Shown piece by piece: positions 1 through 24,724 of a DNA stretch of 26,172 nt. The notes beneath the pieces are model-generated. The model saw nothing but the letters and a program-made list of their open reading frames with translations. It was not told the DNA's origin and ran no database searches. Each line of letters begins with the position of its first letter. The first letter of the stretch is position 1. The stretch is taken from positions 1-26,172 of the IMG/VR virus record IMGVR_UViG_2548876702_000015, one strand, 5' to 3'. The translations under genes and the position numbers were made by a program. This DNA comes from a virus (Duplodnaviria; Heunggongvirae; Uroviricota; Caudoviricetes).

Positions 1-519
1 GAATATATTTCTACATCAACTGAATATCTCGCTGTCGGCGTCGGTATCCCGGCATGTTCCTGTCTGGATGCACCAGGTACACATAAAGCTGGTTATGCAA
101 TCTGTCGCTCTGTAGATTTAAATTCATGGGAATATGTGCCAGACCATCGCGGTGAAGTTGTCTATAGTACCGAAACGGGAGATACCAAAGAAATCACAGT
201 TCCGGGTGATTACCCTGAAAATACAACCACTATCGCCCCATTAACGCCATACGATAAATGGGATGGTGAGAAATGGGTGACGGATACCGAGGCACAGCAT
301 AGCGCCGCACTAGACGCGGCAGAAGTAAAGCGCCAGTCGCTGATTGATGCTGCAATGGCTTCCATCAGTCTGATTCAACTGAAATTACAGGCCGGGCGGA
401 AGCTGACGCAGCCAGAAAACACCCGACTTAACGCTGTGCTGGATTATATTGACGCGGTGACGGCAACAGATACCAGCACCGCACAGGATGTCATCTGGCC
501 TGAACTGCCGGAGGCGTAG
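1..519 (+). CDS. Tail fibre assembly chaperone, lambda Tfa-like (G'), 5'-partial: reading frame is open to window start
   Basis: Frame 1 has no stop from nt 1 to the stop at 517-519. Translation (..SWEYVPDHRGEVVY..YDKWDGEKWVTDTEA..DVIWPELP) matches the central and C-terminal parts of lambda Tfa as recalled. The track start at 136 is a GTG inside the open frame. Convergent with G, 3' ends overlap. Confidence 0.7.
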   Translation, partial: EYISTSTEYLAVGVGIPACSCLDAPGTHKAGYAICRSVDLNSWEYVPDHRGEVVYSTETGDTKEITVPGDYPENTTTIAPLTPYDKWDGEKWVTDTEAQHSAALDAAEVKRQSLIDAAMASISLIQLKLQAGRKLTQPENTRLNAVLDYIDAVTATDTSTAQDVIWPELPEA

Positions 520-4764: not shown

Positions 4765-4810
4765 AGGGAAAGGTTGCCATCAGGGGAAGAAAGGCGGCAG
4801 TGCTGCAACT

Positions 4811-4828
4811 TGTATCAGTGCTGATACA
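4811..4828 (-). promoter_or_regulatory. Candidate late-promoter activator site (Ogr/B-type TGT-N12-ACA dyad) upstream of V
   Basis: Perfect palindrome TTGTATCAGTGCTGATACAA containing TGT-N12-ACA, in the S-V intergenic gap. Centre is about 55 nt upstream of the V ATG. Confidence 0.5.
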
Positions 4829-4832
4829 AAGA

Positions 4833-5279
4833 TCACCCCGCCAGCCATTGCAGAATCATGTCGCGGGTCATTGCCTCAACATCATCATTTACACCCAGCA
4901 GGCGGCGCTCTGCGTAACGGACCTCCGGTCCTTTGCGACTGACGCGATCACGCAGACCGTAATGGTGAACACGGGCAATACGCTGCACCTTGCCTTCAAA
5001 CTGTACGCTGGCAGAGTCGGCGCTGGCGGCAGTTTTCAGGTATTTTGTGGTGCGCAGCTTTGCAAACATCTGACGTTTGATGCGCCCCTTCTTGCTGCGT
5101 GCTGTTACCCTGCGCGGTTCATAACTGCTACCATCTGGATTGCGCTGCATCCTGATATTCTGCTGCTGTGTCCGGCGCAGTTCCTGCGCCAGCTGGCGCA
5201 TCATGCGGCTTCTCGAGGCTGGTTCCAGATTCGCCAGCAAGGCACTCAGCCAGTCGTCCACCTTCTGCAGTTCAGCCAC
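4833..5279 (-). CDS. S: Tail completion protein S (P2 gpS-like)
   Basis: 148 aa, GTG start at 5279-5277 overlapping the R stop. Position and size match P2 gpS. Confidence 0.8.
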   Translation of the reverse strand: MAELQKVDDWLSALLANLEPASRSRMMRQLAQELRRTQQQNIRMQRNPDGSSYEPRRVTARSKKGRIKRQMFAKLRTTKYLKTAASADSASVQFEGKVQRIARVHHYGLRDRVSRKGPEVRYAERRLLGVNDDVEAMTRDMILQWLAG

Positions 5280-10782: not shown

Positions 10783-12549
10783 ATGAACACCACACTGACA
10801 CCCGCAGATCTCGATCCCCGTCGGCAGGCCATGCTGCTGTACTTTCAGGGATACCGCGTAGCCCGCATTGCTGAAATGCTGGGCGAGAAAGTTGCAACCG
10901 TTCACAGCTGGAAAAAACGCGACAAGTGGGGTGACTATGGGCCGCTGGATCAGATGCAGCTCACCACCGCCGCACGCTACTGCCAGCTCATTATGAAGGA
11001 GCACAAAGAAGGGAAAGATTTCAAAGAGATTGACCTGCTGGCGCGCCAGTCGGAACGCCACGCGCGGATCGGCAAGTTTAACAATGGCGGCAACGAAGCC
11101 GACTTAAACCCTAACGTCGCCAACCGCAACAAAGGCCCGCGCCGTCAGCCGGAAAAGAATGTCTTCACCGATGAACAGATTGAGAAGCTGGAAGAAATCT
11201 TCCATTCCTCCATGTTCAACTACCAACGCCACTGGTGGGAAGCCGGAAAAACCAACCGCATCCGCAACCTGCTGAAGTCACGCCAGATCGGCGCGACCTT
11301 TTACTTTGCCCGTGAAGCCCTGATTGACGCTCTGCTTACCGGACGTAACCAGATTTTTCTTTCCGCCAGCAAGGCACAGGCCCACGTCTTCAAACAGTAC
11401 ATCATCGACTTTGCCAAAGAAGTGGAGGTGGAGCTGAAAGGCGATCCGATGGTGCTTCCCAACGGGGCCACACTGTATTTCCTCGGCACCAATGCCCGCA
11501 CTGCCCAGAGTTACCACGGCAACCTGTATCTGGATGAATATTTCTGGATACCGAAATTCCAGGAGCTGCGCAAAGTGGCTTCTGGTATGGCTATTCACAA
11601 GAAATGGCGACAAACCTATTTTTCCACGCCATCCAGCCTGACACACAGTGCTTATCCGTTCTGGTCCGGTGCACTGTTCAACCGTGGGCGCAACAAAGCC
11701 GATAAGGTGGACATCGACCTGTCCCACAGCAATCTGGCCCCCGGCCTGCTGTGCGCAGACGGGCAATACCGCCAGATAGTCACCGTGGAAGATGCGGTGC
11801 GCGGCGGCTGCAACCTGTTCGACCTTGACCAGTTGCGCATGGAGTACAGCCCGGACGAATACCAGAACCTGCTGATGTGCGAGTTTGTGGACGATCTCGC
11901 GTCCGTGTTTCCGCTCAGCGAGCTGCAGGCGTGCATGGTGGACAGTTGGGAAGTCTGGACCGACTTTCATGCTCTGGCCCTGCGCCCGTTTGGCTGGCGC
12001 GAAGTGTGGATCGGTTATGACCCGGCAAAAGGTACGCAGAACGGCGACAGTGCCGGATGCGTGGTGGTGGCACCGCCAGCCGTGCCGGGTGGTAAGTTCC
12101 GCATTCTTGAGCGTCACCAGTGGCGCGGGATGGACTTCCGCGCCCAGGCTGACGCCATCAAAAAACTGACCGAGCAGTACAACGTGACCTACATCGGCAT
12201 CGACTCGACAGGTGTCGGCCACGGGGTTTACGAGAACGTGAAAGCGTTTTTTCCAGCCGTCCGGGAGTTTGTCTATAACCCCAACGTTAAAAACGCCCTG
12301 GTACTCAAGGCCTACGACATTATCAGCCACCGCCGTCTGGAGTTTGACGCCGGACACACCGACATTGCGCAGTCATTCATGGCAATCCGTCGCGCAACCA
12401 CCGCCAGCGGCAACCGCCCGACCTATGAAGCCAGCCGCAGCGAAGAAGCCAGCCATGCGGATCTGGCCTGGGCAACGATGCACGCACTGTTTAACGAACC
12501 GCTGCAGGGCGAATCCGCCAATACCAGCAATATTGTGGAGATTTTTTGA
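10783..12549 (+). CDS. P: Terminase large (ATPase) subunit P (P2 gpP-like)
   Basis: 588 aa, ATG at 10783. Size and divergent position relative to O as in P2. Confidence 0.9.
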   Translation: MNTTLTPADLDPRRQAMLLYFQGYRVARIAEMLGEKVATVHSWKKRDKWGDYGPLDQMQLTTAARYCQLIMKEHKEGKDFKEIDLLARQSERHARIGKFNNGGNEADLNPNVANRNKGPRRQPEKNVFTDEQIEKLEEIFHSSMFNYQRHWWEAGKTNRIRNLLKSRQIGATFYFAREALIDALLTGRNQIFLSASKAQAHVFKQYIIDFAKEVEVELKGDPMVLPNGATLYFLGTNARTAQSYHGNLYLDEYFWIPKFQELRKVASGMAIHKKWRQTYFSTPSSLTHSAYPFWSGALFNRGRNKADKVDIDLSHSNLAPGLLCADGQYRQIVTVEDAVRGGCNLFDLDQLRMEYSPDEYQNLLMCEFVDDLASVFPLSELQACMVDSWEVWTDFHALALRPFGWREVWIGYDPAKGTQNGDSAGCVVVAPPAVPGGKFRILERHQWRGMDFRAQADAIKKLTEQYNVTYIGIDSTGVGHGVYENVKAFFPAVREFVYNPNVKNALVLKAYDIISHRRLEFDAGHTDIAQSFMAIRRATTASGNRPTYEASRSEEASHADLAWATMHALFNEPLQGESANTSNIVEIF

Positions 12550-13595
12550 TGGGAAAGAGTAAGAAGAACCGCGCTGCGGCGACGAAACAGATCCAGCTTA
12601 AAAGTCAAACTACAGCCGAAGCATTCAGCTTCGGCGATCCCGTTCCTGTTCTGGACCGCCGTGAACTGCTGGACTATGTGGAATGCGTACAGATGGATCG
12701 CTGGTATGAGCCGCCTGTCAGCTTTGACGGACTGGCACGAACCTTCCGCGCCGCCGTGCATCACAGCTCACCAATTGCGGTGAAATGCAACATTCTGACC
12801 AGTACCTACATCCCTCACCCGCTGCTCAGCCAGCAGGCTTTTTCACGTTTTGTGCAGGACTATCTGGTATTTGGTAACGCCTACCTGGAGAAACGCACGA
12901 ACCGCTTCGGTGAAGTTATCGCCCTTGAGCCTGCTCTGGCAAAATACACCCGACGCGGGTTAGACCTGGATACCTACTGGTTTGTGCAATACGGTATGAC
13001 AACCCAGCCGTATCAGTTCACGAAAGGCAGCATTTTTCATCTGATGGAACCGGACATCAACCAGGAGATCTACGGCCTGCCAGGTTATCTTTCTGCCATT
13101 CCATCAGCCCTGCTCAACGAGTCCGCCACGCTGTTCCGCCGGAAGTATTATATTAACGGCAGTCATGCAGGCTTCATCATGTACATGACCGATGCCGCGC
13201 AGAACCAGGAGGATGTGAACAACCTCCGCAATGCAATGAAAAGTGCCAAAGGGCCAGGCAACTTCCGCAACCTGTTTATGTACTCTCCTAACGGCAAAAA
13301 GGACGGGCTTCAGATTATCCCGTTGTCAGAAGTCGCGGCGAAGGATGAGTTTCTGAATATCAAGAACGTGAGCCGGGACGACATGATGGCGGCACACCGT
13401 GTGCCGCCGCAAATGATGGGGATAATGCCTAATAATGTTGGGGGCTTTGGTGATGTGGAGAAGGCTAGTCGTGTTTTTGTCCGCAACGAACTGATGCCCC
13501 TGCAGAAACAGCTACAAGAACTTAACTATTGGCTAGGCGAAGAAGCAATACGCTTTGATGCCTACTCCCTAAATTTCACAAACGATTCTTTTTGA
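12549..13595 (+). CDS. Q: Portal protein Q (P2 gpQ-like)
   Basis: ATG at 12549 overlapping the P stop (TGATG); ~348 aa. Position downstream of P, next to the expected cos region. Confidence 0.9.
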   Translation: MGKSKKNRAAATKQIQLKSQTTAEAFSFGDPVPVLDRRELLDYVECVQMDRWYEPPVSFDGLARTFRAAVHHSSPIAVKCNILTSTYIPHPLLSQQAFSRFVQDYLVFGNAYLEKRTNRFGEVIALEPALAKYTRRGLDLDTYWFVQYGMTTQPYQFTKGSIFHLMEPDINQEIYGLPGYLSAIPSALLNESATLFRRKYYINGSHAGFIMYMTDAAQNQEDVNNLRNAMKSAKGPGNFRNLFMYSPNGKKDGLQIIPLSEVAAKDEFLNIKNVSRDDMMAAHRVPPQMMGIMPNNVGGFGDVEKASRVFVRNELMPLQKQLQELNYWLGEEAIRFDAYSLNFTNDSF

Positions 13596-13640
13596 TAAAT
13601 ATGCTGGGCCCCCCCCCGGCATTTACTCACGCCCCAATTT
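13596..13640. other. Candidate cos (cohesive-end) region just downstream of the portal gene, containing a 9-C homopolymer
   Basis: In P2-family genomes cos lies next to the 3' end of Q. The reverse complement here reads GGGGCGTGAGTAAATGCCGGGGGGGGGCCCAGCAT, which resembles the GC-rich P2/186 cohesive ends (GGCG(A/T)GGCGGGGAAAGCA(C/T), as recalled) only loosely. Confidence 0.3.
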
Positions 13641-15377
13641 CCATACTGAATTATACGATAAAATACTTAGTTCAGCAGCTCTTGACCTCATATGATCGGG
13701 CGTCCATTCTCCTTGATATTTATTTTCAAATTCATCAATAAAAATTTTAACTAGCGCATATTGTGATTGTTTATAAATTTCAAGCTTATCCACAACAGAC
13801 TTATTTCCAGCTTTTTCATTTAATTCTTTTGAAAGTGGTAATAAATTTCCTATCATGCTATATACTTCAGAATCCCCCACACTCTGAGGCTGAATATGCT
13901 CTAATGTTAATGAATCAGGCATATACTCCCCCGTTTTCATGTGATGTAACTCAAGTCTATTAAAAATGTACTGAATCAACCTTTTATTTTTCAACTCTTG
14001 ATTTGAAAATTTAAGCATAACAAACTTTTCAACAAACATATTAATGTCTGGTTTTCTCTTCACCAACATTTCAAGCAAAGACTTTATTACTTGTCTATTA
14101 CTAGCTTTAGTAGAACCTTCATCCACTAAAGCCCTAGCAGCTTTAGCATACGCACTTTCAATACCTGATGGTCGCAATGAACAAATAGCATTAAACATAA
14201 AATGAAAGCGTTCAATTGACAGCACTGCATTATTCATATCAACAAGTTTTAGCGTTCCTCTTGCTCTTGCCTTAAATAAAGATAACAAAAATGGTTTATT
14301 CTGAGATATGTTAAACAGCCTTAATGCCTGCAAACCTCGATAAACTGGTTTCATTTCCAGTTCAGGAAAATCCTGTTCTGTAGGCGATGATATTTTCACA
14401 TATATCTCGGCATCTGAAAGTAGCTCATCAATGAACGCTGAAGCATCAATGTCGCCTTTTTTCCACTTATCCAGAAAAGCTTTATAAAGAGTGTCACTAC
14501 TTACATAAGAATATTTTGACACCCACCAATGACGGATAAATGTCTCGATAGAACCGACACCATTACGACTAGCAATTATTTGCCTAATTTTATTCCATTT
14601 AGTTTTTGCATCATCATCAGGATGTGTGCCATTCAGTTTCTTAAATAATTTGTTTTTTATAAGATCTACATAACTTAAGTTTAATCCCCTAGCATTCAGA
14701 GTTTCAAAGATTGTATAAGCTTCATCTTCATCATTAACTGTAATATAAATCACTTTCAGATACCGTAGAACTTGATCCCGCACAGCCTTCAACGCTTCCA
14801 AGTAGATAAATTTCTCTCTATCTACTCCTAATGTCTGGCAAAGATTATCTTCTGAAAGATACTCAGTTAAATCATTATATGAAGATTGCAAGTTTCTTTC
14901 TTCAAGGGACTCCGGTCCTTCATTTCTCTTATCAATATGCTGAATGTTGTTTTGAAAGTATGGCTTAGGAGTTTCATTAACTAATTTAAAAAAAGGTCTG
15001 CCATCGTCATCCATACCAGATATATAATTATTATATATTGATTGAGCTACAGCCAACTCATTTATCAACTTAAATTTATCACATAATGCTGATAACAATA
15101 TAGTAAGAGTCGTAAGACGTTGTTGACCATCTACAATCATCAGCTCAGAGCTAGTTTCCTGCCCGACCAAAACGAGAGCACCGATGAAATACTCATCATA
15201 TTGATACTGCCCATCCTCCTGGTAATGAATATTGGAAACTATATCATGCCAAAGTTCACTTACTTGTTCCTTCCCCCAAGAATATTCTCTTTGGAATCTA
15301 GGGACTATATATTTTTTATTTACAGATAACACGTTTGTTAAGGTTCGAGCATTTGCTTGCAGTTCCACTGAGGCCAC
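13623..15377 (-). CDS. DUF262 (ParB-like, DGQQR motif) + DUF1524 (His-Me finger) nuclease, GmrSD-like candidate type IV restriction / anti-phage protein
   Basis: 584 aa. N-terminal motifs ..YIVPRFQREYSW.. and IVDGQQRLTTL, and FETLNARG, are DUF262 hallmarks. C-terminal LEHIQPQS ... NLLPLSKELNEKAGNK fits the DUF1524 pattern. AT-rich relative to flanking phage genes. Start is GTG at 15377. Confidence 0.7.
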   Translation of the reverse strand: MASVELQANARTLTNVLSVNKKYIVPRFQREYSWGKEQVSELWHDIVSNIHYQEDGQYQYDEYFIGALVLVGQETSSELMIVDGQQRLTTLTILLSALCDKFKLINELAVAQSIYNNYISGMDDDGRPFFKLVNETPKPYFQNNIQHIDKRNEGPESLEERNLQSSYNDLTEYLSEDNLCQTLGVDREKFIYLEALKAVRDQVLRYLKVIYITVNDEDEAYTIFETLNARGLNLSYVDLIKNKLFKKLNGTHPDDDAKTKWNKIRQIIASRNGVGSIETFIRHWWVSKYSYVSSDTLYKAFLDKWKKGDIDASAFIDELLSDAEIYVKISSPTEQDFPELEMKPVYRGLQALRLFNISQNKPFLLSLFKARARGTLKLVDMNNAVLSIERFHFMFNAICSLRPSGIESAYAKAARALVDEGSTKASNRQVIKSLLEMLVKRKPDINMFVEKFVMLKFSNQELKNKRLIQYIFNRLELHHMKTGEYMPDSLTLEHIQPQSVGDSEVYSMIGNLLPLSKELNEKAGNKSVVDKLEIYKQSQYALVKIFIDEFENKYQGEWTPDHMRSRAAELSILSYNSVWKLGRE

Positions 15378-15509
15378 CTACTTTAGTTGTTTGTATTACA
15401 CAGTTTTATAGCATTGGAGTTTGAATGACAACCCGTTGCGCGCGCTCGTATCCCCGCCACGCCTGCCCGCTTTATGTAGTGGTTTTCATGCAGATGCATG
15501 CTCTACGCA

Positions 15510-15540
15510 AAAGCCCGCCAGTTCTGGCGGGCTTTTGCAA
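15510..15540 (-). terminator. Rho-independent terminator (bidirectional hairpin) after the three-gene operon
   Basis: GCCCGCC-agttct-GGCGGGC stem-loop flanked by A-run and T-run (caaaaGCCCGCCagttctGGCGGGCttttgc), 60-90 nt downstream of the stop of the 15600..16016 gene. Confidence 0.6.
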
Positions 15541-15599
15541 AAACGATCCTCAAACGATCATGCGATTTCATGCAGCATAGTCATGCAAAGTAGAAACTG

Positions 15600-16016
15600 C
15601 TATTTAACGTCCGGCGTTTGCGCTGTGGGGGATACTTTTCCATCTAGCGTATTTACAATTGAGAGGGGGTAAATTCCCATTTCAATTCCACAGATCACGT
15701 CGTAACGAGCCTGCGCTTTCTCTCGCATTTCTGGAGAAACAGGGGACGATGGTGCATTTAAAACTGCTTCGGCTTGCTTCTTCAGAGCCTTCAACCGCCT
15801 TTTCAGTTTGATTTCTTGCGGATCAACAGCATAAATCGTCCATGCAAAAGTAAAAACTTCGCTTAAAAGAATTGACACCATCGGTATTGAAGCAATGTAA
15901 AGGTCTTTCCATGTTGGATCTGTAATGAAGCTAGCCAGCTTTATTAGGAAAAGGCCTACACCGCCGCCACCTGTAACACCGACTGCTTTACCGCTTGTTT
16001 TCTTTTGTTCAGGCAT
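15600..16016 (-). CDS. Small membrane protein (2 predicted TM helices), third gene of the uncharacterised three-gene operon
   Basis: ATG at 16016-16014 with a strong AGGAAGGAG SD, 2 nt after the stop of the preceding gene; 138 aa. Hydrophobic segments GVTGGGGVGLFLIKLASFI and IPMVSILLSEVFTFAWTIYAV, with a Lys/Arg-rich helix between. Confidence 0.5.
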   Translation of the reverse strand: MPEQKKTSGKAVGVTGGGGVGLFLIKLASFITDPTWKDLYIASIPMVSILLSEVFTFAWTIYAVDPQEIKLKRRLKALKKQAEAVLNAPSSPVSPEMREKAQARYDVICGIEMGIYPLSIVNTLDGKVSPTAQTPDVK

Positions 16017-16272
16017 GAGAGGCTGACTCCTTCCTCTCACGCTTATTTTTCTCTGCTATATCATCGATGAGCTTTATTAACTCATCATCATTGTTTATAT
16101 AAATATTTGTTTTATAGACATTTTTGTTTGCATCAGTATAAGTGATAGAAACTTTTGTTTCGACAATAACTCGATCGAGCAGGCTACGTATAGCCACTCT
16201 AGCACCTATAAATATAGCTGGAGCTGCAACAAGCAGCCCCAACCATCCTAACACACTAATATCTATAGACAT
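16009..16272 (-). CDS. Small single-pass membrane protein, second gene of the three-gene operon
   Basis: 87 aa, ATG at 16272-16270, 2 nt after the stop of the 304-aa gene. N-terminal TM helix (ISVLGWLGLLVAAPAIFIGARVAI) then a charged soluble tail. Confidence 0.5.
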   Translation of the reverse strand: MSIDISVLGWLGLLVAAPAIFIGARVAIRSLLDRVIVETKVSITYTDANKNVYKTNIYINNDDELIKLIDDIAEKNKRERKESASHA

Positions 16273-16274
16273 TT

Positions 16275-17189
16275 TTAATCCGCATCAGGTTTTATTTTTC
16301 TATCTTTGGCGGCAAAGTGTCGACCCACTTTGATGATCGATAACTTTTCGTCTACCTGGCCACCGGAATCTTTCACAATTTTCTTCATCTTCACAGCAAA
16401 CAATTCGCCAAAAATTTTGGGGGCGTCTGGTCCAGTAACAAGCTTGATGAACTCATTATCTTCCATTCTGACATTGCGCTTTTCACCGCCAAACTCAACA
16501 CGCCAGCCACTTTTTTTGTCAGTATGCGCCGAAACGAATGTCACGGTTGTTTCAAATTCGTCAACTTCTTCTTTGGTTTCAAAGAGAACTTTTGGCGACT
16601 TAAACTCTTCTGCCTCATCTTTATGAATTTTGAGGATTTCTTTCTTAGAGGTGCGCGATTTTTTTACCACAAAATTGTCGATACCATCTTGTAACAGAGG
16701 CTGTCTGACAAACGCGTCAACAGCCTTACGAATCTCTGGGGCATTAACGATTTTTTCGACATCTTCAGAGCAAACAATCTCTTCACCATCGACTTTCAGC
16801 TTAACTTTGTCACTACCGTTAGCTTTCTCGACTATGTCGATCTTACGCCCGTTAAGCTTCTTGAGAACCTCTAAAACTGTAGCACCGCCAACGGCTAAAG
16901 GAATGGCTGACAAACCTAAAATTTGTACAACATCTTTAGCATTAGCTAGATGTTGTACAACCTCAATATCAAACCCAAAGGAACCGGCTATCAATTCAGC
17001 GTCAACGTTAACTTCAATGTCTCGCCCTCCGTTTACAATCTCATTTGCAGAGTAGATAGCCTCACCTAGCCCCTGCAAACTTTTCGCAAACGAAAGAATA
17101 TCCATCTTATGATCGTCGAGAGCTTTGCCTTGATACACAATACTTACTGATTGAGTCTTATCCGCCATTGAGTTCAGATCCGTTGCCAA
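16275..17189 (-). CDS. Hypothetical soluble protein (~297-304 aa), first gene of the three-gene operon; no family recognised
   Basis: Long ORF with coding-like composition, Lys/Glu/Asp-rich C-terminal half. TTG at 17189 or ATG at 17168 are possible starts. AT-rich accessory context. Confidence 0.55.
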   Translation of the reverse strand: MATDLNSMADKTQSVSIVYQGKALDDHKMDILSFAKSLQGLGEAIYSANEIVNGGRDIEVNVDAELIAGSFGFDIEVVQHLANAKDVVQILGLSAIPLAVGGATVLEVLKKLNGRKIDIVEKANGSDKVKLKVDGEEIVCSEDVEKIVNAPEIRKAVDAFVRQPLLQDGIDNFVVKKSRTSKKEILKIHKDEAEEFKSPKVLFETKEEVDEFETTVTFVSAHTDKKSGWRVEFGGEKRNVRMEDNEFIKLVTGPDAPKIFGELFAVKMKKIVKDSGGQVDEKLSIIKVGRHFAAKDRKIKPDAD

Positions 17190-17304
17190 TAAAATGCGCG
17201 CGATTTTACGCCCATCACTATGTTTAATCTATCTATTAATCATTTATCCCTCTAGCTGTCTACTATCGGACTCAAAAAACATGACTCATTACAAACGAAA
17301 CCTA

Positions 17305-17538
17305 TCAATGCAGCCAGCAGTCGTCTTCCCACACCTTCTGCATAATTTTCAGCACTTGTTTTCTTTCTTCGTCCAGTTGCAGTCCGGTCAGTTCCACACC
17401 GTTAGAGCTACCTTTGCGGATACGAATTACCGTTTTGGGATACAGGGGGCGCAGATTGCGGTAAAGCTCGGATTCAAGGGCATCCAGGGTAGACTGGCTA
17501 ATCTTCTGCTCTTTATCGATCATTATTTCAATGCGCAT
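17305..17538 (-). CDS. DinI-family protein (SOS-induced; Tum/DinI-like)
   Basis: 77 aa from ATG 17538-17536 with a GAGGTG SD. MRIEIMIDKEQ..LDALESELYRNLRPLYPKTVIRIRKGSSNGVELTGL..KQVLKIMQKVWEDDCW parallels E. coli DinI (MRIEVTIAK...) as recalled. Downstream of a LexA box. Confidence 0.6.
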   Translation of the reverse strand: MRIEIMIDKEQKISQSTLDALESELYRNLRPLYPKTVIRIRKGSSNGVELTGLQLDEERKQVLKIMQKVWEDDCWLH

Positions 17539-17548
17539 AAAAGTCACC

Positions 17549-17737
17549 TCAGCTGATGACATCCATTGAGCGGTTGTATTCGTGGGTTCTGATTTTTGCC
17601 ATGAGTTCATCTGTCAGTTCAGAAACCCACTGCAAAGCCAGCCCCTTCTCTTCATCACTACACTCACTAGCCGCTACAAGCTTAAGAAAAAAATCAATGC
17701 GCTGGAGCTTCAAAGACTCCAAAAAATAGTCCTGCAT
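17549..17737 (-). CDS. Small hypothetical protein (62 aa), first gene of the LexA-controlled operon
   Basis: ATG at 17737-17735 with a GGAGGA SD. Its stop overlaps the SD of the DinI-like gene (translational coupling). Confidence 0.45.
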   Translation of the reverse strand: MQDYFLESLKLQRIDFFLKLVAASECSDEEKGLALQWVSELTDELMAKIRTHEYNRSMDVIS

Positions 17738-17780
17738 CTTTCCTCCTATGACACCACAAGCAATACTGTATGCATAACCA

Positions 17781-17796
17781 CTGTTTATATTTACAG
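17781..17796 (-). promoter_or_regulatory. LexA (SOS) box overlapping the promoter of the small-protein/DinI-like operon
   Basis: CTGT-TTATATTT-ACAG (cCACTGTttatatttACAGTAta) fits the CTGT-N8-ACAG consensus with an AT-rich centre. On the transcribed strand a TATACT -10 overlaps the box and a TTTACA -35-like hexamer lies upstream. About 40 nt upstream of the ATG at 17737. Confidence 0.6.
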
Positions 17797-17890
17797 TATA
17801 TAATAATCTTACTGATGTAAAACGTTTTTTTACGTTCATCAGCCTGATATGCCTGGTATTATTAAGAGCACGAATTGTTAACCCGCGTAA

Positions 17891-20263
17891 TTAATACAGG
17901 TTTCGCCACTTATCATCTTCCTGCAAACGCTGGTTCCGATAGAAGATACGCAGGCCTGCTCCTGACGGAATACTGCCGCCGCGAAGGAGTAAATCGACCT
18001 CTTTCTCGCTGCCATCAAATCCTCTGGACTTCAGTTCATAGACGAGCTGCTGTCGCTGATGGTCTGTAATTCGCTGTTTGTAGTCTTTACGCCGTTTCGG
18101 TTTCACCAGGCGTAACCTTGCAGCCAGTTCCCGGCGCTCTTTTTTGCTCATACTGTGCAGGTAATCGTGCAACTCCTTGTCATCCATGCGGGTAATGTCC
18201 GTCCTGGTATCCCCATCAGCTGATTTGTCTTTCCCTTGTTGGTTCAAATTTTCAGCAAGGGGACAGTTATTGCCACGAGTCCAAGGGGCGCAAGCGCCCT
18301 GGTCGGCTGCCGCCTCCTGAACATCAACGGCCTTACGAACCATTTTCCACTTCACGGCATGAGTGCAGATCTTGCCCTCTGCAATAGGTGACCAGATGCC
18401 ATAAATACGAATGCCGTGATCGCCATAGGCGGTCGGCTCTTCGTTGATTTCATAAGCGGTTCTGATGAGGTGATATTTGCGGGGAACCAGTACGCCGCCC
18501 TGCTTCATGATGTAGGTGGCAAAACAACCAGCATCAGCAGCAGCCAGGATGGCATCAAGGCGCGGGTTATCCAGTACCGGCGCACCTGCTTTTTTGTCCC
18601 CCTGTTGCCTTGCCGCCTGACCAGCCAGCAATCGCAGTTCACGGTAAGCCTGACGCCCCGGAATGCCAAAGAAGCGGAATTGCTGAACACGATGCAGAGA
18701 CGCCCAGGCATTAACGTATTCAGCATTATCACGTAGGGATTTCCCCGTTTCCTTGCTGATCTCGCCAGCCAGACCACGCCCGTCAATGTTCTTACTGATG
18801 TATTTCGCGATGTAGCTTGTTGGCGTACCTTTGCGCGGGTTAATCAACTCAGACTTAAAGCGCGGCCCAGTGTTATTGCCCAGTTCCTCGCGGTCTTCAC
18901 GGATGGCAAACTTACGCAGTAATGCAGTGATGGCGCGGCGGTCTTTTTTGCGCATAAAACACAACAGGTGCCAGTGAACTGTACCGTCATGATGCGGCTC
19001 AGCCACCCGCACGCCATACCACCGCAATCCGGCTTTGTGCATCGCCTTACGAAATGCAGCAAACATGCCGACCAGATAATCACTGCTTTGTCTTACCGTC
19101 GCATTTGTCCAAGTTGGGTTGGGCCTGCCATTATTTAGCGTGGAATGGAAACGTGACGGACAGGTGATGGTGTAGAAAACGGCGCAGTCACCGCGCATTT
19201 CCGCGATAAGCTCCAGGCCTTTAACACAGGCCATCATCTCATTGCGGCGATGCGCAGGGTTGCTGCTGCTGGCGTTTACCACATCCTCCATGTCCAGCGT
19301 GTCGCCGTCTTCGTTCACCAGTTCATGAGAACGAAAAAACTCCAGCGACTTACGGCGCTGCTCACGTTTATGCATCACGGCTTCATAGCTGACATAGGGA
19401 GATGCTTTTTTGCTGACCAGGCAGACAGCACGCAACTGCTCTTCCCGCCATTCGCAACGCATCTTCCATAATTTCCGGTACCACCAGTCAGCGCACAACA
19501 TACGCGCCAGCGAACCCGGAATGAGTTCATAGGGCACGGGTTTACGGCGGTTTCTTTTCCGGCGGAGTTGCTCAAACGCAGGCGGGATGACATCCAGACG
19601 CAGGGTTTCCGCTGCCACCTTTTCCCATGTCTTGCGGATTTCTTCTGGCTTAACGTCATCGGTGACATACAAATCGCCACAAGCTGCATCAAGGCACATG
19701 CTCATATGCGCAGCTACCAGGGTGGACAGGCGTTTCACCTGATCCTGACTCATTTCAGGCAGGATCAGCAGGCCGTCCAGCCCTTCATGGCTTGCCATAA
19801 AGCGAAAAGAAGTGGATAGCTGACAGTCGCGTACATGCTCCAGCCGTTCCAGACATGGCTTAATCGTCTCACGCAAATAGCGGGAATAAGCCTTTGGCCT
19901 GCCCAGGCTGCTGAAGTATTCAATACGTTGCATCAGTGGCTTGCTGATATGGGAAGGCTGGGCATTAACGTCCGCCAGAATGACCATATCTGGATTAAAA
20001 CGCTGCTGCTCATGCGCCAGCTTTGCCCGACTAATGAGCTTATCCTGCTCCATTTCGCGCTGGACAGGATCACGGGATTCATTAAAGAAATAACGCTCCC
20101 AGACCTGATCACTCAGTGCCTCGCGGCGCAGCTGTTCCTGCTCGTTATCGGCAGCGTACAGAGCGATCAGGTTTGAAAGCGCAGAAACTGAAGATTGCTC
20201 TTCCGTCTCTACGTAAGGATTGATTGCTTTTTTCTCAGCATTCCAGGAATAGCTGTAGTTCAT
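17891..20263 (-). CDS. A: Replication initiation endonuclease A (rolling-circle HUH nickase, P2 gpA-like)
   Basis: ~790 aa from ATG 20263-20261 ([12 protein letters not shown]). HUH-type motif (..[10 protein letters not shown]..). Position at the end of the early operon. Confidence 0.85.
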
Positions 20264-21093
20264 TACGCAATCTCCAGTTCGAGCTGTGAAGGCTGCAAAC
20301 CATTCGACAGCCAATCAGAAACTGAAGGTGGGCGAACAGCTTCAATTGCACCTTTTAAAATTGCGCAACGGTTTTTCAGAATGACAGCTTTCAGCTCCTT
20401 TTCCGTCAGATTGCGCGAATACTCAGCCTCCTGAATAGCCCGCGTCAGCTCAGGATATTTGCTATTAAATTTGGGGACATTGCAGGCAAGATTTGTACTG
20501 TCGGCAGTCGCCAGTGGGTAATTTCCCAACACACGACCGTCAAGCATGCGCAAACCATGAACAGCTGTTTTGAAATTGTGTCGGCAATAAATTGCTTCAA
20601 AAGCGTCCTGCATACGACGATGCCAGTGCGCAGTTCTGATAGCCGCATATTCACCAGACGATCCAAAGCAGACACGAGGCCATTCACGACATAGCTCGAT
20701 AAGCCGATCGATTGACTCGTGCAGATGCCAGACGGGAGTTGCCTTCCCGTAGAACATTTTCGGAACTTCGTTTATCAGGGCATCATTGTCACGTTCACCT
20801 CCGTCCACAACATCAGGAATGACAAAAAAAGCGACCTTAGGATGGTGGTAATAGTTCAGGAGCCATTTATAAAAATCACTCCAGTTAATTTTTAGCCCAC
20901 GCACCCATGCAGAAAATGCGCCGTTATCAATGCCGACGACCTGAGCGTGCTGAATGGACGCCGCAATCTGATCTGGTCGTACATAGGAGACGAAAGCGCC
21001 AGCTCCGCTCACCGCAATACGATGAACGTCGCCAGCACTTCCCCAGACAGGCGTCCCATGGAAATGATGAATTCCGTGGTGCATTTCTTTCAC
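20263..21093 (-). CDS. Hypothetical protein (~273 aa), His-rich N-terminus, co-transcribed between Dam and A; function unknown
   Basis: Track start is GTG at 21093; ATG at 21084-21082 gives [15 protein letters not shown]... Stop overlaps the A start (TAATG). No family confidently recognised. Confidence 0.55.
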
Positions 21094-21944
21094 ACTTGCA
21101 CCCCGAAAATAACAGTAGAGTCACGTCCCCTACTAAAATCGGCACTAAACCAATTAGCAGATTTAGTGGCAATCATCTCTGTTGCAAATTTTCCCTCCCC
21201 CGCTGCAACGCCGATGCTGCGTTTCGCCCTGATGTAGTGGTGAGTGAAATTACGATAAAGGGACCGGGTCAAAGACGTGTTACTGTTAGAAACAATGACC
21301 GGATGTCCTTCTGATGACCGATGTTCAAGAATGGATGCCAGGTGATACTGATCATCTTCAGTGAAACCATCAGTGTGATAGCCGGAAAACGTACCGTCAT
21401 AAGGCGGATCGCAATACACCACATCCCCCACCTTCAACATCGCCAGCGTTTCATCAAAGCTGGCGCAGATAAACGTTGCCCGCTGGGCTTTCTCTGCAAA
21501 TGCGCGAATTTCTTTTTCAGGGAAATACGGATTTTTATAATTACCGTAGGGAATGTTGAAATGCCCGCTCTTGTTATAGCGACATAAACCACGGTAACCG
21601 TGACGATTGAGATACAGGAAATATACCGCTTTCATGAAATCAGTAATTTCAGTGGAGTAATTAAACTCCTGCCTTATGTTGTAATAAGCCGCCTCCCTGT
21701 TTGCTTCCTCAAATAAAGCTCTGGCACGAGATATAAACGCCTCACAATCAGCAGCAACCTTTTTATAGAGGTTGATTAAATCAGGATTAATATCCGCAAC
21801 AAGATAGCTGGGGTAATCCGTCTCCATCATCACTGCACAGGAACCCGCGAAAGGTTCAACCAGTCGCGGGCCAGCAGGAAGATGCTTTTTCAGTTCGGAC
21901 ATTATGGCGGTTTTATTTCCTGCCCATTTCAGGATGGTGCTCAT
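21090..21944 (-). CDS. dam: DNA adenine methyltransferase (Dam/D12 class N6-adenine MTase)
   Basis: ATG at 21944-21942 ([11 protein letters not shown]..). SAM-binding motif ..[10 protein letters not shown].. and catalytic DPPY motif (VYCDPPYDG). 284 aa. Confidence 0.8.
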
Positions 21945-22168
21945 ACAGCACCTCCGTTGTAATGTTTGCCTTTCAGCTCTGCGATTTCCTGACAGGTAAT
22001 GCAAAGCTGCACACCCGGAATGGCACGGCGGCGTGCTGGCGGAATTGGCGCTTCACACTCAACGCAAAGCACGCGGGACACGCCCGGCGTTTTGGCACGG
22101 GCAGCACGGATATGGCGTTGGCGTTCTTCTTCAACGCGCTGCTGTACGAGATCCATTGCATCAGCCAT
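21941..22168 (-). CDS. TraR/DksA-family C4 zinc-finger protein
   Basis: 75 aa, ATG at 22168-22166. CVECEAPIP..(x17)..CITCQ four-cysteine zinc-finger spacing. Stop overlaps the Dam start. Confidence 0.7.
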   Translation of the reverse strand: MADAMDLVQQRVEEERQRHIRAARAKTPGVSRVLCVECEAPIPPARRRAIPGVQLCITCQEIAELKGKHYNGGAV

Positions 22169-23231: not shown

Positions 23232-23741
23232 TCACAGCAAACCGAATGAAGCACCGAGGCCAGTCACGGTATCAACTGCACTCGCCATCGCAGGGTTAGC
23301 CTGTAAACGGGCCTGCAATGAAACAGCAGCCAACGCCATCAGTCGTGTTACAGAGTTAATGCTGCTGATAGCATCACGACGACCTGCACTGGTTTTTACA
23401 TCGCCAGATACCGCACCTGCAGCAACACGCCCGATCTCTGCGGTTGCACTCATGACGTAATGTGGCAGTTTCTCTTTTGCCACCTCATTAATTGGTACGC
23501 ATGGCAGGCAGTGAATCTGTGCCAGAAAACCATCTACCAACGTTGAATCTTCAGTCAGATCGGTAAGCAGCCAGATTTCTGGTGCGGTTAATAAATGAGG
23601 TTGAGCTGGGTTCAGCTTGTTCCGCAGAATCTGCACATTCATGCCCGCACGTTCTGCCAGTTGCACCAGATTGTGGCGCAGTGCGAATGCACGACAGGCT
23701 TCATCAAAATGTGGATGTTTGGAAACTTGGTAATCAAACAT
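23232..23741 (-). CDS. cII: CII-like lysogeny-establishment transcription activator (coliphage 186 CII homolog)
   Basis: ATG at 23741-23739 gives 169 aa starting [24 protein letters not shown].., which I recognise as close to 186 CII (169 aa). Sits downstream of the apl-like gene. Confidence 0.65.
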
Positions 23742-23805
23742 GGTTTTCAACTCCGAACTTATCGCAAAATCGAACTCAGCGTCTTATTGCGAAAATAGAC
23801 GTCTA

Positions 23806-24009
23806 TTAAGCAGACAAAGCATCAACAGTCAGAGCAGCCAGGTTAATCATTACCTTTTCACGTTTTTTGTCTTTACGAAGACGATGACGAGGTAGTCGGC
23901 CATCAGCCAACATGTCGTTAATCGTATCAATAGAAAGGCCAGTCAGTTCGCTATAACGTTCGATTGTGACATGTGGTGTATTCAGAGTAATTGAAATGTT
24001 AGGTGTCAT
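23806..24009 (-). CDS. apl: Apl/Cox-like excisionase-repressor (small HTH protein, first gene of the early lytic operon)
   Basis: 67 aa, ATG at 24009-24007. HTH-like ..[25 protein letters not shown].. with a basic C-terminus. Divergent from cI. Confidence 0.55.
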
Positions 24010-24154
24010 AAGGCAACATTCCTTCTAGGTATGGCTTGTGGCGAGCCGTTGTTTGTCGTGATTAGTAGTGAAGGCTCCAAAAGAACACTTCTGGTTCAAC
24101 TTTAAGATCGCTTTTGGAATCTGTCAACGAATTTTGGATTTCTTTGGAGGACTT
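24010..24154. promoter_or_regulatory. Lysis-lysogeny switch region (pR/pL promoters and operators) between divergent apl and cI
   Basis: 145-bp gap between the divergent early-lytic (apl-cII) and immunity (cI-int) operons. Individual operators were not resolved by eye. Confidence 0.4.
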
Positions 24155-24724
24155 GTGGATTTCAATAGCGGCGGTAAGAAAGCCATAGAACGTTTAGTTG
24201 AAGCATATGGGTTCGGTACCCGTCAGGCTCTCTGTGATCATTTAGGTGTTTCTAAGAGCACCATGGCAACGCGCTATATGCGTGATATTTTTCCAGCAGA
24301 TTGGGTAATCCAGTGCGCCCTTGAAACGGGCACCTCGCTTAATTGGCTAACAACAGGGCATGGTTCAAAGCAAGCATCAGCAAATACAAATACTATAGAA
24401 GTAGAAAAATATTTATTGTCTGATGGAGCATTGCAGAAAGACGGTTTTTATATTTTTGATAAGGAATTTCTACCCTCTACGTTTAAAAAACCTTTTGTCA
24501 TCACAGATAACAATTCTGAATTTATTTGTGATAAAGAATTTGATGATATACGTGATGGTAAATGGGTAATAAGTATTGATGGCGAAATAACGATCCGTGA
24601 CATTACTCGTTTACCCGGTGGAAGAATCTTCGTCGAGGGTGGAAACAGAGCCTTCGAATGCAAGATAGAAGACATTGAAATAATTGGTAAAATTATAAGT
24701 TTAACAGTCAAGTATGTTAAATAG
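24155..24724 (+). CDS. cI: Immunity repressor CI (coliphage 186 CI-like)
   Basis: GTG at 24155 with a GGAGG SD 4 nt upstream; ~189 aa. N-terminal HTH ..LVEAYGFGTRQALCDHLGVSKSTMATRYMRD..ALETGTSLNWLTTG parallels 186 CI (..ICEAYGFSQK..ALETGANLQWLLTG) as recalled. Confidence 0.7.
   Translation: MDFNSGGKKAIERLVEAYGFGTRQALCDHLGVSKSTMATRYMRDIFPADWVIQCALETGTSLNWLTTGHGSKQASANTNTIEVEKYLLSDGALQKDGFYIFDKEFLPSTFKKPFVITDNNSEFICDKEFDDIRDGKWVISIDGEITIRDITRLPGGRIFVEGGNRAFECKIEDIEIIGKIISLTVKYVK

Follow-up and report, generated by a model that had tools for sequence, protein, structure and literature searches.

Variable cargo on both sides of a putative cos site in the gpA-gpQ hotspot of a Fels-2/186-like prophage

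The interval between the portal gene and replication gene A was analyzed in a 26,172-nucleotide stretch of viral DNA (IMG/VR record IMGVR_UViG_2548876702_000015, positions 1 to 26,172; hereafter the window), which is a P2/186-type prophage of the family Peduoviridae. This interval (13596-17890) is the already described gpA-gpQ hotspot of P2-like phages and, the three-gene cassette that it carries apart, an ordinary example of it. Two cargo units, a GmrSD-like nuclease gene and the cassette, occupy separate slots on either side of a putative cos site, and an adjoining LexA-controlled operon belongs to the phage backbone rather than to the cargo. In the proposed layout the order from gene A to the portal gene would be SOS operon, slot 2 with the cassette, a hairpin and cos, slot 1 with the nuclease gene, and the portal gene. 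This explanation as a whole, in which the variable interval is assigned to the cos-proximal region of a Fels-2/186-like prophage, is held with considerable confidence.

The portal-to-A interval is the gpA-gpQ hotspot

Positions 13596-17890 form the exact gap between the stop of the portal gene (13595) and the stop of gene A (17891), and every gene in the gap lies on the - strand. The conserved left flank is the gpQ homologue (12546..13595, + strand; Pfam Phage_portal 4.8e-19), designated 'phage portal protein' by RefSeq in the equivalent locus of Escherichia coli 13E0767. The conserved right flank is gene A (17891..20305, - strand, within a Phage_GPA open reading frame [ORF] of 17891-20314), which matches Pfam Phage_GPA (1.3e-127) and is named 'replication endonuclease' by RefSeq. 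A cos-proximal defence hotspot between gpA and gpQ of P2-like phages was defined by Rousset et al. (2022; PMC9122126), and a 2026 follow-up preprint widened the hotspot survey to thousands of elements. The interval described here lies between the gpA (Phage_GPA) and gpQ (Phage_portal) homologues, contains the cos core (15445-15463) and varies in gene content among close relatives, as seen in the prophage of E. coli MB51, in other E. coli prophages and in the slot lengths of 30 loci described below. Moreover, Table S5 of PMC9122126 lists WP_000422658, WP_000764102, WP_001115044, WP_000020716, WP_001154434 and WP_001217573, which are the proteins of this very island. The corresponding place is occupied by tin/old in P2 and by orf97 in 186. 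A first-pass annotation of the window had taken the portal-to-A interval for the known variable defence locus of the P2 family, and both PMC9122126 and the position of P2 tin/old support this.

The interval thus shares with the published hotspot its flank genes, cos adjacency, variation among close relatives, defence-type cargo and these exact proteins. It differs in that PMC9122126 and the 2026 preprint treat a single hotspot, whereas here cos makes two independently varying slots. A defensive role for hotspot cargo is suggested by matches to the HEC-06 and PDC-S42 models and by defence-type Pfam domains encoded in related loci. The gpA-gpQ hotspot, its adjacency to cos, its defence cargo and the protein accessions of the island have already been published; the division by cos into two slots and the need to drop the tum/DinI operon from the cargo are absent from both PMC9122126 and the 2026 preprint, and are best regarded as refinements, not discoveries. 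The locus as such adds little, the nuclease family being validated and the SOS operon textbook for 186-like phages.

A putative cos site lies within the interval

Alignment with cosL/cosR of P2 and 186, which extended over the adjoining flank on either side, identified a putative 19-nt cohesive end, GGCGTGGCGGGGATACGAG, at 15445..15463 (- strand). The cohesive end of 186 is GGCGTGGCGGGGAAAGCAT, and the two match over the first 13 of 19 nt and at 15/19 positions overall. In the P2/186 alignment the flanks of cos, ...AAAGCGGGCA and CGCGCGC, are conserved, and the cohesive end with its flanks, including the GGCG(A/T)GGCGGGG motif, is present in the window. A search with the P2/186 19-mer allowing up to three mismatches gave no match because the site differs at four positions, and it was the alignment that located it instead. 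The cohesive end is identical to the annotated 'putative cos site' of phage Cartapus, where the genome record of that phage opens. To place the site in a wider context, 33 loci from 33 other species were fetched with the 62-aa gene of the SOS operon as anchor. The cos core was found once, at the same place, in 29 of these, all of which also had a portal hit; the other 4/33 lacked a portal hit or the cos motif. Together with the window, these make up the 30 loci compared below.

In the first-pass annotation 'portal/cos' had formed one flank of the island. This placement was not supported by the alignment to P2 and 186, in which the cos core at 15445-15463 falls mid-island and so puts the nuclease gene between cos and the portal gene. 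In P2 and 186 themselves 168-177 bp separate the portal stop from cos and contain no more than a terminator, and in phage Cartapus a DUF4145 gene likewise lies between cos and the portal gene. The site is embedded in a conserved block with repeated CATGCA-type motifs (15428..15587) and a GC content of 0.48, which is the only conserved DNA between the two slots; identity to related loci is 80-95% over this block only. It includes a strong terminator-like hairpin (15500-15544; -31.8 kcal/mol, z -7.0) followed by UUUUG, at the position of terminator t95b of 186. In several E. coli genomes a RefSeq/PGAP pseudogene ('hypothetical protein, internal stop') is annotated over the cos block (15383-15571; 4786-4974 of locus L001), and is most likely an annotation artefact on a non-coding packaging site.

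The two slots vary independently

Slot 1 extends from cos to the portal stop and slot 2 from the DinI-like gene or the 62-aa gene to cos. Across the 30 loci the length of slot 1 ranged from 140 to 3328 bp and that of slot 2 from 163 to 3512 bp, and all combinations occurred: in Pantoea stewartii neither slot is filled (203 and 164 bp), only slot 1 is filled in six loci, and only slot 2 in several. Filled slots have a GC content of 0.33-0.47. Empty slot 1 is GC-rich (mostly 0.59-0.68, with 0.44 in one locus), and P2 and 186 are alike in this respect. These two phages use only the A-side slot (slot 2); at the slot-1 position, where the window has cargo, they keep approximately 170 bp. On the portal side conservation ends 7 nt past the 19-mer, after CGCGCGC (15438-15463 region), and slot-1 cargo starts there. 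ORFs in slot 1 are directed from cos towards the portal stop in 42/44 cases from 23 species (loci L016-L048), and those in slot 2 run in both directions. In related loci, domains encoded by slot-1 cargo include TIR, SIR2, KAP NTPase, AbiC, DndB, Schlafen/AlbA_2 and AAA_15/21, and those encoded by slot-2 cargo include Abi_2, HEPN, GmrSD_N, AAA_15/21, cytosine methylase and HATPase_c_3.

The same independence is seen among 5,426 complete E. coli genomes, 1,281 of which were matched by the island query; in most of the matches listed only the part comprising cos and the SOS operon (approximately 17% of the query) was covered. The cassette was present in 8 of the complete genomes and the nuclease allele in 6, with both in a single genome, so that the nuclease allele occurs alone in 5 and the cassette alone in 7 others. 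E. coli MB51 carries a near-identical prophage in which the nuclease gene and the SOS operon are kept and the cassette is absent. Pairwise alignment and the annotation of MB51 delimit the slot-2 cargo segment, made up of the cassette and its upstream region, to 15588..17304 (- strand). MB51 has approximately 95 bp of unrelated sequence at this position, and the segment ends exactly at the DinI stop codon. The nuclease gene and the cassette are thus true cargo, and the two slots assort independently. All three gene modules listed in the first-pass annotation (nuclease, three-gene operon and LexA/DinI operon) are present in the interval, and its description of 'three independent modules' as cargo holds for the first two, the LexA/DinI operon being backbone.

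A hotspot in P4 satellites offers a close parallel. There cargo begins a few nucleotides after ...GGCG(A/T)GGCGGGG-N7-(C/T)GCGCG, which is the junction seen at slot 1, on the corresponding side of cos, and the P4 hotspot clones of Table S2A show this slot-1 junction (PMC9122126). The satellite differs in having no portal gene, its far flank being the P4 integrase side. As both slots abut cos and the junction of one recurs in the P4 satellite hotspot, recombination at DNA ends generated at cos might drive the exchange of cargo. Recognition of two slots astride cos should sharpen hotspot boundaries in surveys.

Slot 1 encodes a GmrSD-like nuclease of the HEC-06 type

The nuclease gene (13623..15368, - strand; RefSeq WP_000422658) encodes 581 aa from a GTG at 15368, within a frame open to 15377 (584 aa). 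Its product combines DUF262 and DUF1524 domains, with matches to Pfam GmrSD_N (1e-38) and GmrSD_C (1.2e-11). The best PADLOC matches are to HEC-06 models (3.8e-90 to 4.4e-84) and span residues 1-581, while SspE models reach 3.7e-21 at best and match the N-terminus only. The N-terminal DUF262 domain contains DGQQR at residues 83-87 and the DUF1524 domain contains EHIQP, of the (D/E)HxxP type, at 493-497 (584-aa frame). In HEC-06, an experimentally validated GmrSD-like defence protein, mutation of the NTPase (DGQQR) and His-Me nuclease (EHICP) motifs abolished defence (Payne et al., bioRxiv 10.1101/2024.01.29.577857). The protein encoded in the window resembles HEC-06 in its arrangement of DUF262, linker and DUF1524, in its full-length hidden Markov model match and in the presence of both defence motifs; it differs in that it is encoded in a prophage hotspot, whereas HEC-06 is embedded in an Hma system. 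GmrSD, BrxU and SspE are more distant relatives, and among solved structures DUF262 proteins and SspE come closest, mainly through the N-terminal domain. DUF262/DUF1524 proteins constitute hotspot system 10 (231 occurrences), which is labelled 'type-IV restriction enzyme' and is outside the tested systems (PMC9122126). By homology, the protein is predicted to be an NTP-dependent His-Me-finger enzyme that would recognize and cleave incoming phage DNA in the manner of type IV restriction. A promoter-like sequence, TTGTCA-15 nt-TATAAA, is located upstream of the gene at 15405..15431 (- strand) and starts 14 nt after the end of cos; it was read from the sequence, and any promoter function would be conjectural.

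Slot 2 carries a mobile three-gene cassette

The cassette consists of three tightly packed genes on the - strand. Gene 1 (16275..17168) encodes a soluble protein of 297 aa whose C-terminal domain is predicted to be OB-like, gene 2 (16009..16272) an 87-aa protein with one N-terminal hydrophobic helix according to hydropathy, and gene 3 (15600..16016) a 138-aa membrane protein with a glycine-rich N-terminus and one clear hydrophobic region in the hydropathy profile. Gene 2 starts 2 nt past the stop of gene 1, and gene 3 overlaps gene 2 by 8 nt. Full-length matches of the 297-aa protein were obtained to PADLOC PDC-S42 (7.8e-44), phrog_3243 and NCBIfam NF053583, the last (LAPAL_fam, 'LAPAL motif-containing putative phage structural protein') at 191.7 bits against a cut-off of 60. 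The PDC-S42 and NF053583 labels disagree, one denoting a defence candidate and the other a structural protein, and no tested function was found behind the PDC-S42, phrog_3243 or NF053583 labels. All three models cover the 297-aa protein only, not its two membrane partners. A match to Pfam DUF7946 was weak and below cut-off. Sequence searches of the PDB with the 297-aa family were empty, Foldseek against the PDB gave nothing significant, and in BFVD only low-TM matches to uncharacterised proteins were found, among them a DUF6575 protein. The cassette corresponds to system 37 in Table S5B of PMC9122126, with 104 occurrences and the description '2 TM in protein 2, 1 TM in protein 3'; for the gene 3 product the table gives 2 TM. 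Its identification with the validated three-gene 'no predicted domain' anti-P1 system of Rousset et al. was considered and rejected, the cassette sequences not being in Table S2.

An exhaustive profile search yielded 3,604 clusters of the 297-aa family at 50% identity, nearly all of 280-320 aa. In enterobacterial members down to 48% identity the two small membrane genes always come after it, tightly packed or overlapping, and are homologous as well. Besides the P2 slot, the trio was seen next to the gene for an S24-type CI repressor (Proteus prophages), next to primase and SSB genes (Klebsiella), within a Mu-like head module, and in a tail module with the tail chaperone gene on one side and the tape-measure gene on the other. 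The cassette therefore moves as a unit into unrelated phages. Such varied contexts are those of a moron and misfit a structural gene. Two single-protein scans of viral contigs for distant relatives of the 297-aa protein gave no match, and one further scan found a lone homologue beside a CI repressor gene. This distant homologue (approximately 26% identity) is encoded on a GC-rich viral contig (L070 5971-8210) without membrane partners and is convergent with a CI-like helix-turn-helix/S24 repressor gene.

We tentatively propose that the cassette may be a new defence system made up of an OB-fold protein and membrane effectors, possibly boosted by the SOS response. The soluble 297-aa protein, which may bind nucleic acid, would sense a nucleic-acid or protein cue of infection and control the two membrane proteins, and these would then act as effectors that kill or seal the cell, giving superinfection exclusion or abortive infection. 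Transcription may in addition be read through from the SOS (tum) promoter. No terminator-like fold was found after the DinI-like gene, and a strong hairpin is present only after the cassette, so that SOS read-through into the cassette is plausible by analogy with orf97 of 186. The cassette, of approximately 1.7 kb, is a well-delimited, mobile, widespread and catalogued candidate.

Two small membrane proteins and possible co-transcription with the SOS operon would also fit a module of toxin-antitoxin, holin-like or lysis-timing type that acts in the cycle of the phage itself rather than in excluding other phages. This is unlikely, given that the cassette is dispensable in close relatives, that a lysis module is already present in the conserved late region, and that the very large family of the soluble partner also occurs without membrane proteins, beside repressor genes. 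That the cassette is a virion or morphogenesis component, as the name and score of NF053583 and its position inside head or tail gene clusters in some phages might indicate, is very unlikely: it is missing from the near-identical MB51 prophage, is present in only 8 of the 1,281 E. coli genomes that the island query matched, has foreign GC at third codon positions (GC3), matches a PADLOC defence-candidate model, and in unrelated phage types is found at non-homologous positions, including beside CI repressor genes. From its absence in MB51 and its non-homologous sites elsewhere, a structural role appears not to fit.

The LexA-controlled operon is a probable split tum locus of the backbone

Two genes lie directly downstream of gene A on the - strand. 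The first (17549..17737) encodes a 62-aa probable antirepressor of TumA type, which matches phrog_698 and is 98.4% identical to a Fels-2 product. The second (17305..17538) encodes a DinI-like protein of TumB type (Pfam DinI 8.4e-21) that is 40% identical to 186 Tum over residues 71-145, its C-terminal half. A LexA box, CTGTTTATATTTACAG (17781..17796), precedes the 62-aa gene and is the only perfect CTGT-N8-ACAG in the window; it lies just downstream of gene A, and its placement is that of the LexA site at p95 of 186. The Fels-2 annotation of the gene neighbouring the 62-aa orthologue cites TumB of PSP3. In Fels-2 and PSP3 tum is split in two, an antirepressor and a DinI homologue, and the split genes have been assigned to prophage SOS induction (Lemire et al. 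2011, PMC3121763). The window also has an immunity region of 186 type, comprising CI (24068-24724; Phage_CI_repr and Phage_CI_C), CII (23232-23750; CP76) and a Cox/Apl-like gene (23806-24009; phrog_575). The p95-tum-orf97 region of 186 is similar in its position directly downstream of A, its LexA box at the promoter, its DinI-like part, and its cargo gene (orf97) and terminator before cos. It differs in having one 146-aa Tum instead of two genes, the 62-aa product showing no detectable similarity to the N-terminal half of Tum. In the proposed mechanism a LexA-repressed promoter would drive the antirepressor-type gene and the DinI homologue, and after DNA damage the split tum products would inactivate the 186-type CI repressor.

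The operon had been listed in the first-pass annotation as a third accessory or defence module. DinI-like proteins are RecA modulators, and this property, together with the location of the operon inside the low-GC interval, could be taken in favour of such a role. Its genes are also listed among the hotspot genes in the tables of Rousset et al. The proposal is nevertheless improbable. Prophages of 33 species have the operon conserved immediately after A, at 72-100% identity; a query that includes it matches 1,281 E. coli genomes; the identity to Fels-2 and the match to split tum point to the SOS induction described in the literature; and the 186-type CI of the window needs an antirepressor. 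The LexA/DinI operon is most probably the prophage SOS-induction switch and is backbone for this lineage, and it should accordingly be excluded from cargo counts.

Several points weigh against the interpretation set out above. No alignment was obtained between the 62-aa protein and the N-terminal half of 186 Tum, and the antirepressor role, reported for PSP3, rests in PMC3121763 on a cited personal communication. The cohesive end is assigned by homology and is putative, and over the last 7 nt it departs from the P2 and 186 sequences. For the cassette, NCBIfam names the 297-aa protein a 'putative phage structural protein', the cassette is not in the tested set of Table S2 (PMC9122126), and a literature search found no paper mentioning PDC-S42, the LAPAL motif or DUF7946. 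We infer, rather than observe, all biochemical activities and the role of the cassette in defence. Finally, a scan for consensus promoters and terminators gave matches at the level of shuffled sequence (11 sigma-70 consensus sites against 11.2 expected from shuffles), so that promoters could not be separated from chance. The presence of 'its own start signals' in front of each module, as given in the first-pass annotation, was not confirmed on this basis. The start signals readable directly are only the LexA box and the near-consensus TTGTCA-15 nt-TATAAA upstream of the nuclease gene, the latter missed by the scan because its spacer is 15 nt.

Base composition and relatives of the island

The AT-rich island noted in the first-pass annotation at approximately 13.6-17.9 kb was confirmed by sliding-window analysis, in which GC drops from approximately 0.55 to 0.33-0.45. 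In 500-bp windows GC was 0.33-0.45 across 13501-18000; in gene A, by contrast, it was 0.52-0.55, and in the structural genes on the left 0.52-0.62. Overall GC is 0.392 for 13596-17890; among all windows of this length (4295 bp) along the sequence the median is 0.503, and the one of lowest GC begins at 13651. GC3 is 0.275 for the nuclease gene and 0.31-0.39 for the cassette, vs 0.56 for the DinI-like gene, 0.52 for the 62-aa gene and 0.57 for gene A. The nuclease gene and the cassette thus look foreign, while the two genes of the SOS operon resemble gene A, and intergenic DNA is largely the source of low GC in the SOS-operon stretch.

A single horizontally acquired island of 4.3 kb carrying all three modules, as the continuous low GC over the interval and the location of all genes on one strand might imply, is barely credible in view of the independent assortment (nuclease gene and SOS operon without the cassette in MB51, and seven E. 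coli genomes with the cassette and without this nuclease), the conserved cos block (GC 0.48) between the cargo units and the backbone-like GC3 of the SOS operon, and a single insertion is ruled out by the genomes with empty sites and mixed combinations.

The island is identical to that of the E. coli 13E0767 prophage save for a C9/C7 tract, and the backbone is 98.9% identical over 9.6 kb, with divergence beyond approximately 20188, so the window does not come from 13E0767. The flanks are 95-97% identical to those of Klebsiella phages KP12 and 4LV2017 and Escherichia phage vB_EcoM-813R9, and 92% identical to Salmonella phage RE2010. The C tract lies where the portal and nuclease genes converge, in a gap of 27 bp (13596..13622) that comprises this tract and a weak hairpin (+ strand fold -12.9 kcal/mol, z -2.5). 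At 13606-13614 it is C9 in the window and C7 in both 13E0767 and MB51, and it makes the loop and stem of the hairpin.

Other features of the window

A 276-aa ORF just upstream of gene A (20263-21093, - strand) overlaps the gene A start. It has no Pfam hit and matches phrog_887 ('queuine tRNA-ribosyltransferase', moron/auxiliary category) at 2.4e-96. In the 13E0767 prophage a Dam methylase gene comes directly after A, vs the 276-aa ORF in the window, and this ORF has no relation to orf84, which 186 has in this position; 20263-21093 looks like another variable spot. In the window a D12-class Dam methylase is encoded at 21090-22004 (- strand), in the early operon upstream of A. Dam methylases are common in this phage lineage and are relevant to how a phage protects itself from restriction or evades it. 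Two tail-fibre-assembly (chaperone) ORFs lie on opposite strands at the start of the window (136-519, + strand; 491-931, - strand), in a patch of lower GC (0.45-0.46), an arrangement that suggests a duplicated or invertible tail-fibre/chaperone segment.

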